A DNA stretch of 64,000 nt, taken from contig OZ241842.1 of the NCBI GenBank assembly GCA_965202675.1, positions 2,098,918 through 2,162,917 of the forward strand, given 5' to 3'. Made by a program: the position numbers and the translations under genes. The stretch comes from Candidatus Spongiisociaceae bacterium (GTDB taxonomy: Bacteria; Actinomycetota; Acidimicrobiia; Spongiisociales; Spongiisociaceae). Of the stretch, positions 6,076 through 46,219 are shown piece after piece (within the stretch, counting starts at the first letter, position 1; each line of letters begins with the position of its first letter). Below the pieces are notes generated by a model. It was given only the letters and a program-made list of their open reading frames with translations, was not told where the DNA came from and did not search any database.

Positions 6076-6365
6076 CAAATCACGGAATGACAAAAAAATC
6101 CGCCGGATCCGCCTACAAGGGTATTGACTATGTCGCACCGATGCTGTATTAATGGAAGAGCTGCAAGCACCTCCGGTCCGCAGCCGGCGCAGACCGGGAC
6201 AGGGATCATCCTCCGAACGCGATCCTCCGGGGTACTGACCGACCGCGTCCGGGAAACAGGTGGTGGTGGCGGGGGCCGGGCCCGCGAAGCGGGGAGCGGC
6301 GGTGGCGTTTTTCGCGTTCTTGCCGGGTCAGGGGAGGTGGGATAGGTGCTTGAACAGGGGGTTCG
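6076..6365 (+). repeat. Dispersed promoter-bearing structured repeat, copy A
   Basis: High visible identity to 42868-44541 (+, interrupted by IS110) and 45826-46219 (-), from CAAATCACGGAATGACAAAAAAATC through CCCGCGAAGCGGG to TTTTTCGCGTTCTTGCC. Confidence 0.92.
6124..6153 (+). promoter_or_regulatory. Sigma70-type promoter within repeat copy A
   Basis: TTGACT-17 bp-TATTAAT with an upstream A7 tract; the equivalent TTGACT-17-GATAAT is in copies B (42916-42944) and C (46144-46172, minus). Confidence 0.7.
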
Positions 6366-6433
6366 CGGGAAAAGGGTTTGGGCTTACGCGGTGGTTTGTG
6401 TCTTTCTCCGTAAATACGACCGGCGGTAGGAAG

Positions 6434-6612
6434 TCAGGCCCTCGGCCTGTTTGATGACCGTATCGGTTGCCTTCTCCTGCTTGTCGGGCAGGTACCCGTG
6501 CTCCGCGGAAGCCTCTTGACCGCGATGCGCCGCCGGGCGCGCACATCTTCGCGCCGGGTCCAGTCGATGCCGGTGTTGTAGCGCACCGTCTCCACCAGCT
6601 CGCGGCGATCAT
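6434..6612 (-). pseudogene. hsdR: 3' remnant of a second type I restriction subunit gene
   Basis: Diverged copy of the last ~180 bp of hsdR (about 8840-9020): [24 protein letters not shown], with frameshifts. Confidence 0.85.
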
Positions 6613-6722
6613 GATCAGTCATCCCGCAGGTTTTCCCAATTGCTCTCATAATCAGGCACCTCGGTTCTACTCATGATGGATAATACCTCTAGCCAGCTGC
6701 CAATCAAGAGACGCATTCTATA

Positions 6723-6801
6723 CATGCTTGTACTCGGCGGCGTCCATGGTCCTCCGCAGGCTGTCCGCCATCTTCCAAAGCTCAATCTCATACCCCGTGA
6801 T
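6723..6801 (-). pseudogene. hsdM: 5' remnant of a second type I methyltransferase gene
   Basis: Near-identical to about 17004-17082 ([16 protein letters not shown]...DAAEYKH); same position directly after a DUF4276-like gene. Confidence 0.85.
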
Positions 6802-7409
6802 TAGCTTTCATTGTTTGACCTAGTCTGTTGATCTAACTGCTCAAGAAATCGTTTGGCGTATGGAGATGCCTGCTTGATCTTATCCGGGTTGAGAGTTGCT
6901 AGAATATTAAAGCTGTGTGAGCCTTTGCTGTAAGAGCCCTTCTTGGTATTACGAGTTGCTTGACGGAGTTTATCCAGGACATCATCTTTAGGCACTATCT
7001 CGACATTATTGTATTGCGGTATTGCATCTGCCCGAAAACCTTGACCGTAGTATTCCTGCAATGCTTCTTTGTCGGCTAGAAACCATGATTCCATTATCAG
7101 CACCATCATATGGCATTGTTCCTCGGTGGCATTGCTGGGCTTTGACCATCCATCCCGCTTGTTCAAATGTTGCCAAGGTTTATCTCCTGCTTTGATCGAA
7201 TCTTCGGCATCCACAAGCAAAATACAAAGTTTGTTATCCTCATGAGCAGTTTTGAATTTGTCATAAGCATTATCACGGCTGCCGCAAGCCATTATTCTTG
7301 GCATTCTCTCTTCAAATCCTGCCCTTTTTATGAACTCTGTAAAACCCTTACGGCATTTTGGTTTGAGTGAACCTTCGCCGCCTCCTTCCACATATATTGT
7401 GATGCTCAC
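6801..7409 (-). CDS. DUF4276-like TOPRIM-fold protein (copy 1)
   Basis: ITIYVEGGG N-terminal acidic strand, ACGSRDNAY, LLVDAE, MESWFLADKEAL, YSKGSHSF; GTGA overlap with the upstream ATPase; AT-rich. Confidence 0.8.
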   Translation of the reverse strand: MSITIYVEGGGEGSLKPKCRKGFTEFIKRAGFEERMPRIMACGSRDNAYDKFKTAHEDNKLCILLVDAEDSIKAGDKPWQHLNKRDGWSKPSNATEEQCHMMVLIMESWFLADKEALQEYYGQGFRADAIPQYNNVEIVPKDDVLDKLRQATRNTKKGSYSKGSHSFNILATLNPDKIKQASPYAKRFLEQLDQQTRSNNES

Positions 7410-44345: not shown

Positions 44346-44569
44346 CACGGCGGCGGCGGGGGCCGGGCCCGCGAAGCGGGGCGAGGGGGCGGGGTTTTTC
44401 GCGTTCTTGCCGGGGGTCCGGGGGCAGAATAGGGGCTTGACCAGGCGGTTCGGAGGATGCACGGATAGGGGTGCCTTCACCGTTCCGTTGGCGGGCGCAG
44501 CGCCCCGCCGCCCCGTGCTCATCGGGCAGACCATCCAACAGTTGCTTGCGCCGGGACACTCCCGGCTCC

Positions 44570-44754
44570 CTATCCGCGCACGCTCTTACCCGTTGGTGGG
44601 AGATGCTGAGCAGTTTGGCCGCTTCCCGCAGGGCAAGCCTTCGTTGCGGGCGGCTATGGCGAGCGTCGGCGGCGCTCGACCGGGGAGCCCTTCGGTAATG
44701 CTGATCGCCCGCCATGGCGGATCGTGGATGGATGGCGATGGCCTCGTATGTCAT
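44570..44754 (-). pseudogene. Frameshifted HicB-like antitoxin remnant with C-terminal HTH
   Basis: MTYEAIAI, then WRAISITEGLPG in another frame, then LREAAKLLSISHQRV. Confidence 0.5.
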
Positions 44755-44785
44755 GATCTCCCCTGCCAGGCCCTTCGCGCCGTCC

Positions 44786-45712
44786 TTACGATGATAGATC
44801 GGGCAGCCTGGTCAGCAGGTATTGGGCGGCCATCAGGTCCAGGTGTCCGCCGCCGCCGTTCTTGAACAGGGTGATGTCGTCGTCGCTCGTCCGGCCTGCT
44901 GCGGCGCCTGACGCCAGCTGGTAATGGTCGCCGAGCACTTCCGTTTCGCTGATGACCCCGGTTTCCATCGGGATTTTGATCTCTCCGGTCTCGAAGGCCG
45001 ACGGCCTCGAATCGACGAATATCCGGGACCGCGCCGCGGCCTCGTCGTCGGCTTCCCGCATATGCGGCAGGTAGGCCCCGACCAGATCGAGATGGGCGCC
45101 GGGGCGCAGCCACGCCCCTCTGATCAAGGGTTCGACCGTCATCGTGGCGCAGGACACGATGTCCGCCGATTCGACCGCCCCTCTCAGGTCGGCGGCCGCT
45201 TCCGCGGGCGGCTCGGTCAGTCGGGCGGCCAGGGCTTGCGCCCGCGCGAAAGTGCGGTTCCAGATCATGACCCGTTCGATGGACGGGCAGGCGGCCAGGT
45301 GGGCGCGGATCAGATGCGGCGCCATGGCGCCTGCGCCGACCATCAGCAGACTGGAGGCTCCGGCCCGCGCCAGCCGCCGCGATCCCAGGGCCGAGTCGCA
45401 GGCGGTTTTGAACCAGGTTATGGCGTTGCCGACGATGACCGCCCGTTCCTCGCCGGTAAGCGGATCGAAGACGACGTAGACGGTCTGGACGGAGGGCAGA
45501 TCGGTGTTGCGGGGGAAGATGGTGGCCAGCTTGATTCCCAGACCCGTCCTGGGCGCCAGCCCGACCCGGGCCAGCAGGCCGTTCCCGGCCTGGTCGGCCA
45601 GGTACATGTCCTTTACCAGAGCCGGATCGGCGCGGTGGCAGTCGTCGAAGAAATCGATGAGGGGCCCGTACTCGAACAGGCTCAAGGCCTCTCGGTGGGA
45701 CACGACCCGCAT
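44786..45712 (-). CDS. Ornithine cyclodeaminase / mu-crystallin family protein
   Basis: GIKLATIFPRN, TWFKTACDSALG, GAGAMA, IWNRT, HLDLVGAY, TLFKNGGGGHLDL. Confidence 0.9.
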   Translation of the reverse strand: MRVVSHREALSLFEYGPLIDFFDDCHRADPALVKDMYLADQAGNGLLARVGLAPRTGLGIKLATIFPRNTDLPSVQTVYVVFDPLTGEERAVIVGNAITWFKTACDSALGSRRLARAGASSLLMVGAGAMAPHLIRAHLAACPSIERVMIWNRTFARAQALAARLTEPPAEAAADLRGAVESADIVSCATMTVEPLIRGAWLRPGAHLDLVGAYLPHMREADDEAAARSRIFVDSRPSAFETGEIKIPMETGVISETEVLGDHYQLASGAAAGRTSDDDITLFKNGGGGHLDLMAAQYLLTRLPDLSS

Positions 45713-45825
45713 GGTCGGCCACGCTAGCCGACCTTCTGTCCGGCGTCTCCTTCCCCGTCAGATGTCCGGGCCGTCTTATACCGTGCGCGGACAGGGCGCC
45801 GGGAAGGCATCCCCGGCGCAGGCGG

Positions 45826-46219
45826 CTGTTGGATGGTTACGCCCGATGAGCACAGGTCGGCGGGGCGCTGCGCCCGCCGAAGGAACGGCGAGGGCTTTCC
45901 TGTCCGTGCAGCCTCCGAACCCCCTGGTCAAGCGAACCCACCGGTCAAGCCCCTTTCCGCCTCCGGACCCAGGCAAGAACGCGAAAAACACCGCCCCCGC
46001 GCCCCGCTTCGCGGGCCCGGCCCCCGCCGCCACCACCGTGAGTTCCGGACGCGTTCGGTCAGTACCCGGCAGGGCCGCGTTCGGAGGATGATCCCTGTCT
46101 CGGTCTGCGGCGCCTGCGGACCGGAGGTGCTTGCGGCTCTATCATTATCCGATATCGGTGAGACATAGTCAATACCCTTGCGGGCGGATCCGGCGGATTT
46201 TTTTGTCATTCCGTGATTT
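45826..46219 (-). repeat. Dispersed repeat copy C (intact, inverted relative to B)
   Basis: Reverse complement aligns with copies A and B; TTGACT-17-GATAAT promoter at 46172-46144. Confidence 0.92.

Follow-up and report, generated by a model that had tools for sequence, protein, structure and literature searches.

Families of sibling sRNA genes, such as Qrr1-5 of Vibrio, LhrC1-5 of Listeria and the tandem copies of NsiR1 in Anabaena, comprise 2-12 copies. By definition, a MITE has terminal inverted repeats and duplicates its target site (TA in the case of Correia elements), and the Correia/NEMIS repeats of Neisseria are transcribed along with their neighbours (PMC3184786, PMC10969869). REPs are the natural targets of the IS110-family element IS621 (PMC11208160). 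Among actinobacterial sRNAs, the 6C RNA is linked to DNA damage in C. glutamicum (PMC6789036). PafBC acts via RecA-NDp (PMC6789036, PMC8223512), and no small RNA has been implicated in this response according to PMC6789036.

The repeat described here was found in a stretch of 64,000 nt, hereafter the window, from the genome of a Candidatus Spongiisociaceae bacterium, a sponge symbiont of the Acidimicrobiia. In our view each repeat is probably a self-contained cassette encoding a structured ncRNA of ~175 nt, which carries a DNA-damage-type promoter and is copied by insertion at the DNA level. Expression of the RNA, its induction by DNA damage, its action in trans via a G-rich tract and its spreading route are what we infer from the data below. 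The cassettes resemble Qrr, LhrC and NsiR1 in being paralogous genes with their own promoter and 3’ end, a common fold, a single-stranded seed-like tract and an orientation independent of the neighbours. In contrast to those families, 30 to ~170 copies per genome occur at sites that are non-orthologous even between congeners, and mosaic repeat modules as well as a promoter of the DNA-damage class are added. Among the bacterial small-RNA gene families known to us, this would be by far the most strongly amplified.

A whole-genome search for further copies, as suggested by the preliminary description of this DNA, revealed ~170 copies, far above chance, in an assembly with a completeness of 94%. 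Subfamily A comprises ~105 copies (99 full-length and 6 split by an IS) with a pairwise identity of 88%, subfamily B including B-like sequences 51, and ~15 copies are of other types. Two young A copies, at 476714 and 3003990 of the genome, are 98% alike. The cassette cores sum up to 45 kb, i.e. 1.5% of the genome. The cassette is conserved in three genera and all positive relatives are multicopy, with at least 35, 33, 33, 19 and 14 copies among the matches scored (up to 40). Its occurrence is restricted to a single family of sponge-associated Acidimicrobiia, and it is uncatalogued.

The core has a promoter and a ~175-nt segment of four helices, together with a single-stranded G-rich tract and a TTTTCGCGTTCT tail, both invariant. 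A sharp 5’ boundary, AAATCACGG, is common to 82 copies. In subfamily A, optional modules follow the T-run and the unit stops at a defined 3’ terminus (...CCGCGCACGTTCTTA); the complete unit starts with AAATCACGG... and terminates with ...CGCACGTTCTTA. This 3’ end (...GTTCTTA) is present in 35 copies, whose units measure ~420, 480 and 560 nt, and the full range of units is 250-560 nt. The downstream modules are mosaic, and tandem units also occur. Subfamily B has a 5’ module made of a hairpin and a T-run, which begins at or adjoining a TAG. The inverted repeats of an ISL3 element have GTTTTCGCG in common with the cassette tail; as chance alone would yield ~19 such 9-mers, we treat this relation as unproven.

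All four copies that had been reported for the window exist and are matched by covariance model R1, which was built from copies of genus g7 only. Copy 1 (subfamily A, plus strand, 6077 to ~6434) has its core at 6077-6321, followed by modules M1 and M2 (6322 to ~6434) without the terminal M3. Its promoter (6124-6152) shows a -35 TTGACT at 6124-6129, TGTC at 6131-6134 and a -10 TATTAA at 6147-6152; the copy fails the T6 rule of the consensus scan. The structured RNA segment spans 6152-6323 (67.9 bits, E 6e-17) with helices backed by covariation. It includes the G-rich tract (6258-6275), the CCCGC-GAA-GCGGG hairpin (6281-6293) and a T5 run (6308-6312), after which the CGCGTTCTT tail follows at 6313-6321. 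Copy 4 is a complete A unit of 444 nt on the minus strand (46219 to 45776) and the best match (77.5 bits, E 1.5e-19). Its promoter, located at 46172 to 46144, reads TTGACT-17-GATAAT and reaches 10/12 in the consensus scan. The RNA segment extends from 46145 to 45973 and modules M1 and M3 follow down to 45776.

Copy 3, likewise of subfamily A, is split within its G tract by an IS of the IS110 family. The 5’ part (42869-43053, plus strand, 37.8 bits) contains TTGACT at 42916-42921 and, after 17 nt, GATAAT at 42939-42944, with the RNA segment reaching to ...CAGGTG. The IS of ~1.3 kb lies on the minus strand at 43054-44349 (+/-5 nt). Its transposase ORF (44104 to 43064) matches the Pfam families DEDD_Tnp_IS110 (8e-32) and Transposase_20 (6e-19). 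The 3’ part (44350-44588, plus strand, 24.7 bits) holds the remainder of the G tract, the hairpin, the T-run tail and M1 plus M3, ending with ...CCGCGCACGCTCTTA at 44588.

Copy 2 (23651-23921, plus strand) belongs to subfamily B and in this respect departs from the preliminary description, which had counted a copy at 23694 into one family with a strong promoter of its own. It possesses neither the A-tract nor TTGACT, yet the covariance model identifies it as a homologue (28.1 bits, E 3e-6). Its 5’ module starts directly after the TAG (23648-23650) of a glyoxalase-family gene and has TTTTTCGCATTCT at 23675-23687. The promoter consists of TGTC (23707-23710) and TACTAT (23723-23728). The RNA segment (23732-23923) comprises the G tract (GCTGGTGG..., 23853-23876), the hairpin (23879-23893) and the T5 run (23908-23912), all on the plus strand. 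The A-tract together with TTGAC(T)-17-(G/T)AT(A/T)A(A/T) was indeed common to copies 1, 3 and 4. The hairpins of ACCC/GGGT and CCCGC-GAA-GCGGG type and the T5 run were all recovered, and the direct repeat of period 26 proved to be two CCGAACGCG motifs 26 nt apart. A co-oriented downstream gene is found at copy 4 only, in line with the earlier statement that three of the four copies have no sense gene downstream.

The predicted fold of the RNA has one hairpin at the 5’ side (H1) and one at the 3’ side (H4); between them, the covarying helix H2 closes a central domain in which H3 forms the inner hairpin. The 3’ end is expected near the T-run/CGCGUUCU. The helices were evaluated in an alignment of 38 distinct sequences from 8 genomes, which was fitted to the model structure and therefore favours covariation. 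In this model-fitted alignment, 86.5% of the cells are paired (77.1% in shuffles), both-sided changes occur in 24/31 pairs (shuffle mean 13.0) and the covariation score is 0.238 as compared to 0.128. None of 500 shuffles reached the observed value, and slid controls stayed at ≤ 0.062. G-U cells exceed A-C cells (71 vs 38) on the promoter-sense strand. Moreover, an orthologous copy in common with the congener G002 keeps H2 by different sequences (AUCUCG/CGAGAU vs GUCAUC/GAUGAC). Within subfamily A, mutual information picked up lineage markers and not base pairs. As variation there is mostly of this kind and not compensatory, it is possible that many of the 105 A copies are inert. Folded as a single sequence, the A consensus is no more stable (MFE) than shuffles (z +1.09). 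On MAFFT alignments, neither RNAalifold nor a column-wise helix search was informative, since the arms of the helices are out of register there.

Rfam 15 yielded only tRNA and PYLIS_3 at the gathering threshold in the whole window, and no match at E ≤ 10 for copy 1 with flanks, so that no family accounts for the repeat. A conserved reading frame is absent as previously stated: the longest ATG-ORF in A has a median of 18 aa, and the lengths of the copies fall into all three mod-3 classes. Conservation in three genera, compensatory helices and the excess of G-U over A-C support the earlier suggestion of a structured ncRNA of ~170 nt that is multicopy and has a promoter of its own.

The promoter would be of the actinobacterial LexA-independent DNA-damage type (RecA-NDp/PafBC-like). 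The ancestral form reads TGTC-N12-TAnnnT, and the TGTC-N12-hexamer spacing is common to A, B and the relatives. For RecA-NDp, the consensus tTGTCRgtg-8nt-TAnnnT was reportedly given by Gamulin et al. in 2004. Subfamily B, window copy 2 and the relatives have TGTCR 12 nt ahead of TAnnnT and no -35. In subfamily B the motif is present in 32/51 copies, 30 of them with TACTAT; B’s TGTCATAGG differs from the regulon consensus TGTCACACC. The strict form TGTCRCRCC-N7-TANNNT adjoins the RNA or lies ~100 nt upstream of it in 14 g7 loci. The same motif stands before the recA, ssb, rmuC, recC (Exonuc_V_gamma), DUF222-HNH and DUF5131 genes in this genome, which also contains a candidate regulator in the form of two adjacent WYL (PafBC-like) ORFs in tandem (370.8-372.0 kb). 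A linkage of the cassettes to DUF222-HNH genes was considered and dismissed, as it concerns one gene that is not adjacent. Known regulon members are protein genes, whereas here the motif precedes tens to more than 100 RNA cassettes.

Subfamily A keeps TGTCGCACC-N8 and conforms to this promoter definition only partly because of GATAAT, which lacks the first T of TAnnnT, and an added consensus -35. TTGAC is kept in 97/99 A copies, and judging from its sequence this -35 probably makes the promoter strong or constitutive.

The G-rich tract GGUGGUGGCGGUGGGGGAGGG is almost invariant and single-stranded in the model fold. It may represent the working surface of the RNA, binding a protein or a pyrimidine-rich nucleic acid partner in trans. 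A search for partners or targets of the tract found none; the 129 complementary genomic sites are not informative since they are mostly antisense to Gly-rich coding sequence. A CsrA sponge of the CsrB/RsmZ type was rejected, as PF02599 has 0 matches in the genome while controls match. The 6C RNA is comparable as a structured actinobacterial sRNA with a homopolymer-rich single-stranded motif and a link to DNA damage, in case of the cassette by promoter type. In contrast, 6C is single-copy with C-rich loops, while the cassette RNA is multicopy, G-rich and without Rfam match. Any connection to 6C could be only that of a partner and not of a relative.

With respect to mobility, the element is missing from genomes of the same genus at the two window sites tested and at 8/15 further syntenic loci, indicating that these copies were gained recently. 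The empty-site comparison thereby substantiates the mobility suspected before, at a resolution above single bases since the intergenic DNA of G002 is too diverged (85% identity) for base-precise empty sites. Metagenome contigs were searched for strain-level polymorphism, and the nearest relative of a neighbouring gene was 71% identical. Terminal inverted repeats had been reported missing, and a repeat search on a full-length copy indeed found none joining the termini. Target duplications of 2-4 nt are likewise absent among the 35 copies in which both ends are present: the right end does not vary (TTA, the element’s own), the left flank does, and no match exists between the two. The left flank prefers TTAA (12/82 vs 0.03 expected); beyond -5 the composition of the flanks is that of background, with a random right flank. 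Copies are mostly intergenic with an enrichment in convergent regions (35% vs 20%). Six apparent cases of A copies inside ORFs lie at the edges of crude ORF calls and were rejected as gene disruptions. Homing to stop codons was also rejected for subfamily A, as an upstream stop is at the junction in ~4/82 copies.

These traits would also suit selfish, non-autonomous mobile DNA (MITE/SINE-like), whose promoter and fold serve its own propagation or are relics and which has no function for the host. The burst of ~105 A copies at 88% identity, the empty orthologous sites, the sharp 5’ end and the 3’ end defined in 35 copies, the TTAA preference, the mosaic modules with tandem units and the convergent enrichment all speak for it. 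However, neither terminal inverted repeats nor target duplications, nor a Y1 HUH gene, nor a candidate autonomous partner with the same ends were found. An RNA copy made from the cassette promoter could not regenerate that promoter because it lies inside the unit. Moreover the family is old (three genera), an orthologous locus is retained with compensatory change and the helices covary, which argues for selection on the fold. We therefore consider a purely selfish element possible but rather unlikely. A MITE, including the Correia type, was dismissed as terminal inverted repeats and target-site duplication are both absent; Correia/NEMIS shares with the cassette that it is a small, abundant, intergenic, promoter-bearing repeat polymorphic between related genomes, yet the cassette has no such ends and encodes a covarying RNA fold. 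Likewise an IS110-derived bridge-RNA MITE was rejected, since the flanks are not conserved (no target of ≥ 10 nt on both sides).

The preliminary description had offered an ssDNA-folded recombination site as the alternative to an ncRNA; in terms of known elements, this would be a REP/BIME-like or IS200/IS605-like (PATE) site processed by a HUH enzyme. Several hairpins including GNA triloops, the lack of inverted repeats and target duplications, and a short conserved motif at the left end only, as in IS200/IS605, are consistent with this. So is the targeting by IS110 elements, reminiscent of IS621 on REPs (PMC11208160): all 6 IS110 copies of the genome reside in A cassettes at one identical site, GGTG^GTGG. 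REP/BIME are similarly dispersed, extragenic and mosaic with G+C-rich hairpins. In contrast, REPs are ~35-bp palindromes with a linked Y1 HUH (RAYT), while the cassette spans 250-560 nt with a conserved promoter. The expected linked recombinase was not recovered either: Y1 HUH (PF01797; RAYT/TnpA) has 0 matches in this genome (94% complete), whereas 6/14 control genomes are positive. Y2 HUH (PF04986; IS91/ISCR) gave no match in the genome and none in control genomes either. Orientation of A copies is not biased by replichore (16+/26- vs 30+/27-, with ori/ter placement confirmed by gene strand bias), and the G-U excess on the promoter-sense strand points to RNA. An ssDNA-folded site thus appears very improbable. 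From the initial interpretation, the structured ncRNA with its own promoter and the suspicion of mobility are supported, and the REP-type site is not.

A portable cis-regulatory cassette, in which a terminator or insulator is combined with a damage-responsive promoter firing sense or antisense into downstream DNA, was evaluated as well. The B 5’ module with its hairpin and T-run at a TAG fits this idea, as does the median distance from stop to TTTTTCGC of 51 nt among 25 co-oriented upstream genes, which equals the module length. Read-through is plausible because the tail is not a canonical terminator: a scan for canonical intrinsic terminators found none, the T5 run being located 5-15 nt past the hairpin. 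Against this, copy orientation is independent of the neighbouring genes. Downstream genes of the 99 A copies are co-oriented in 44 and opposite in 55 cases, at a median distance of > 300 nt, and a covarying body of 175 nt with an invariant G tract would be needless for a mere promoter. We regard such a cis-regulatory role as improbable. Taken together the data favour an RNA gene cassette, which would have been copied to ~170 sites by DNA-level insertion leaving neither inverted repeats nor target duplications.

A bolder version, to which we give little credence, sees the cassette as the first RNA arm of the PafBC response and at the same time as a new mobile unit of a whole sRNA gene, with TTAA-like or stop-proximal insertion and perhaps mobilised by damage. 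If that were true, the regulator would have a major sink in the 100-170 promoter copies of each genome. Should the RNA be produced and be damage-inducible, a non-coding component would be added to the PafBC/RecA-NDp response. With no inverted repeats, no target duplications and no HUH gene, the spread points to a mechanism not yet described by which short DNA segments are copied in uncultured sponge symbionts. In any case, ~170 near-identical repeats of 250-560 bp are substrates for recombination and landing pads for IS elements, which shape the genomes of these bacteria and can break their assemblies.

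The four sites named in the preliminary description were inspected as sequence and then aligned. Copy 1 (start 6077, plus strand) and copy 4 (start 46219, minus strand) belong to subfamily A by direct reading and alignment, as does copy 3 (start 42869, plus strand), which is split. These copies share a sharp 5’ end (AAATCACGGAATGACAAAAAAATCC), GGGTATTGAC(T) with the -10 element seventeen bases downstream, a ~170-nt stem-bearing segment, a G-rich tract, the hairpin CCCGC-GAA-GCGGG and GTTTTTCGCGTTCTT. Promoter, stems and hairpin are present as had been described. The proposed four-copy family holds insofar as all four sites are homologous, but the copy at 23.7 kb represents a second, separate subfamily (B). 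What it has in common with A is GGGTATTG, TGTC, the final ~65 nt and blocks scattered over the body. Copy 3 is interrupted after ...CAGGTG by a 1.3-kb element whose 346-aa ORF is an IS110-family transposase, and the cassette picks up again at 44350.

The source genome (G000) is a single contig of 3.008 Mb with 66.6% G+C, on which the window occupies C1:2098918-2162917. By blastn, subfamily A has 99 full-length copies (83-100% identity to copy 1) and subfamily B has 42, which makes the family multicopy genome-wide. A profile search for the common 3’ module yielded 171 sites (99 A, 51 B-like, 21 others); the others include six 3’ halves of A copies split by IS110. Cassette cores alone amount to 45 kb (1.5% of the genome). 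A copies show 91.6% identity to their own consensus and 88% pairwise.

For structure comparison, copies were gathered from eight related genomes. By eye, four helices are paired through differing sequences: H1 as CGGUCCG/CGGACCG, CCGCCGC/GCGGCGG or UCGGG/CCCGA, H2 as GUCGAG/CUCGAC, GUUCGAGGC/GCCUCGAAC, UCGGGACGC/GCGUCCCGA or UUCCGAACGCG/CGCGUCCGGAA, H3 as ACCC/GGGU or CCCCC/GGGGG, and H4 as CCCGC/GCGGG or GCCGGGC/GCCCGGC. A covariance model with hand-written structure, built from 11 copies of another genus, matched all four window copies and 43 sites in the collected loci. The covariation alignment comprised 38 distinct sequences and was fitted to the model’s own structure; with this reservation, paired cells reached 86.5% (77.1% in shuffles), 24 of 31 pairs changed on both sides (13.0 in shuffles), and the covariation score was 0.238 versus 0.128, with none of 500 shuffles as high and slid partners at ≤0.062. 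This is in line with the structured RNA of ~170 nt considered earlier. G-U cells outnumber A-C cells (71 vs 38), which would be expected were the promoter-sense strand the one that folds. One copy of the "other" type, at 1833 kb in G000, has an ortholog in the congener G002 (84% identity across gene and cassette). H2 stays paired in both although its sequence differs, AUCUCG/CGAGAU in one versus GUCAUC/GAUGAC in the other. Conservation is highest in single-stranded parts, namely GGUGGUGGCGGUGGGGGAGGGCCC, GGAACGCGC and the UUUUCGCGUUCU tail. No reading frame is conserved among the copies, as already noted from the window, and an Rfam search left the cassette without a match. A CsrB-like sponge was rejected.

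A weak partial match to the cassette model (positions 67-109, 16.3 bits, E 0.005) in coding DNA at 30774-30816 (minus strand) is probably due to chance. At 39002-39101 (minus strand) there is a match to the Rfam family PYLIS_3, which represents the mttB pyrrolysine insertion sequence (54.7 bits, gathering score 38). It lies inside a long ORF region on the minus strand (38586-40157) and suggests that an Acidimicrobiia symbiont has a trimethylamine methyltransferase gene of the pyrrolysine type.

B copies and copies of relatives carry TGTC, 12 nt and TAnnnT without a -35 element. Gamulin et al. 2004 reportedly gave the consensus tTGTCRgtg-8nt-TAnnnT. The strict form TGTCRCRCC-N7-TANNNT occurs at 14 loci of another genus of the family, adjoining the RNA segment or ~100 nt upstream. 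Judged by its motif, the promoter is the RecA-NDp/PafBC arrangement known in Actinobacteria (PMC6789036, PMC8223512), and we infer its regulation from this motif. In subfamily A, TGTCGCACC is retained in this position, yet TTGAC(T/C) stands 17 nt ahead of GATAAT; TTGAC is found in 97/99 and a GATAAT-type -10 in 59/99 copies. Outside cassettes, TGTCR-N11-TANNNT was detected at 24 intergenic sites ahead of genes in G000, many in the extended form TGTCACACCCCC. Behind these sites are, among others, recA, ssb, rmuC, recC, DUF5131 and a gene of the DUF222-HNH type. G000 also has a pair of adjacent WYL-domain ORFs (370.8-372.0 kb). The neighbouring genes at G000:C1:2408904 and 2411260 (plus strand) each have the identical upstream motif TGTCACAGCCCGCCCCTATAGT, and PafBC-like motifs also precede two DNA methyltransferase-like genes (2926908-2928587 and 2577235-2578311). 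Restriction-modification or defence-like genes may hence belong to the DNA-damage regulon of G000.

The subfamily A unit starts abruptly and carries optional modules beyond the T-run: M1 (GGGATAGGGGCTTGACCAGGGGGTTCGCAGGA, at times tandem), M2 and M3, a long hairpin. Its 3’ terminus is defined (...CCGCGCACGTTCTTA), with unit lengths of ~420, 480 and 560 nt across 35 copies. At the A termini neither terminal inverted repeats, in agreement with the preliminary description, nor a target duplication was found. The TTA on the right is constant and part of the element; the left flank is variable. A MITE was rejected as there is neither TIR nor TSD. The left flank of A shows a graded preference T-T-(T/A)-A-A, with TTAA in 12 of 82 copies (0.03 expected). 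Two head-to-head A cassettes near 618633 (L067, G000:C1:618000-619300) share one TTTAAA at both 5’ ends (...CCGCGATTTAAATCACGG...), consistent with a TTAA-like site having been used for insertion more than once. At G000:C1:1135664-1135883 an A cassette is immediately followed by a tandem array of at least 6 units of 36-bp M1 (GGTCTGGGGTGGGATAGGGGCTTGACCGGTGGGTTC), and one copy of the congener G001 (L005:1480-1500) has the invariant tail motif TTTTCGCGTTCTC inverted relative to the rest.

Subfamily B begins with a module made of a hairpin and a T-run; its sequence TTTTTCGCATTCT nearly repeats that of the tail, and the module frequently starts at a TAG. For 25 co-oriented upstream genes the median stop-codon distance equals the length of this module, hence B sits right behind stop codons; for A such siting was rejected from the left-flank data. 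Cassettes occur in every gene context, with convergent intergenic regions enriched (35% vs 20%) and no orientation preference relative to the downstream gene. A portable terminator-promoter unit, bringing both signals to its neighbours, appears improbable to us. Linkage to DUF222-HNH genes was not found in G000.

The ssDNA-folded, REP-type site proposed earlier did not hold up: G000 has no Y1 HUH transposase gene and its copies show no replichore bias, so REP/RAYT or IS200/IS605-like elements were rejected. We regard a REP-like ssDNA site as very improbable. The cassette itself serves as a target. All six genomic IS110 copies are located at one point of its G tract (GGTG^GTGG), which is how IS621 behaves in REPs (PMC11208160). 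An IS110 derivative was rejected as the cassette flanks are not conserved. Of the five copies of an ISL3-family element, three are inserted in A-tracts of A cassettes, with an 8-bp duplication. At L064:130-1570 (G000:C1:1271330-1272770; 1.37 kb, DDE_Tnp_ISL3, 1e-57) the duplication is AAAAAAAT and the inverted repeats are GGCCCTTCGCGAAAGTGTGGG... / ...CCCCACGTTTTCGCGAAGCC; GTTTTCGCG is shared with the cassette tail, which may be chance.

Empty sites support the suspected mobility. G002 has 233 bp and the congener G003 148 bp between the GcvT-family gene and the 308-aa ORF, where the window has 2200 bp (copy 3 with its IS110); from this ORF to PEP carboxylase the distance is 30 bp in G002 and 196 bp in G003 versus 578 bp in the window (copy 4). 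Synteny with the first 400 kb of G002 covers 15 cassette loci of G000. At eight of them the intergenic DNA of G002 is short (60-298 bp vs 347-2141 bp in G000), and at two both genomes carry a cassette. Apart from one degenerate relic, neither congener has subfamily A as such; in G002 a subfamily of its own dominates, with 14 tail modules per 400 kb. Judged by this comparison, G000 gained copies recently. In G001 and G002 the luciferase-like monooxygenase gene (4753-6006) adjoins the ortholog of the gene at 19911-21494, hence the ~14 kb in G000 (6007-19900; DUF4276 and others) represent an insertion or rearrangement. The segment is partly syntenic with another G002 region, and copy 1 lies exactly at its left border.

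The family was found by DNA search in 13/19 relatives, and by covariance model in 0/150 other genomes of the class; it is confined to one bacterial family. A purely selfish element, existing for its own spread, is an explanation we consider unlikely. We favour, with some reserve in view of the non-canonical 3’ end, a structured-RNA gene wired to the DNA-damage regulon: the predicted RNA would act on a partner via its exposed G tract, and the cassette has multiplied, presumably by a DNA-level process.
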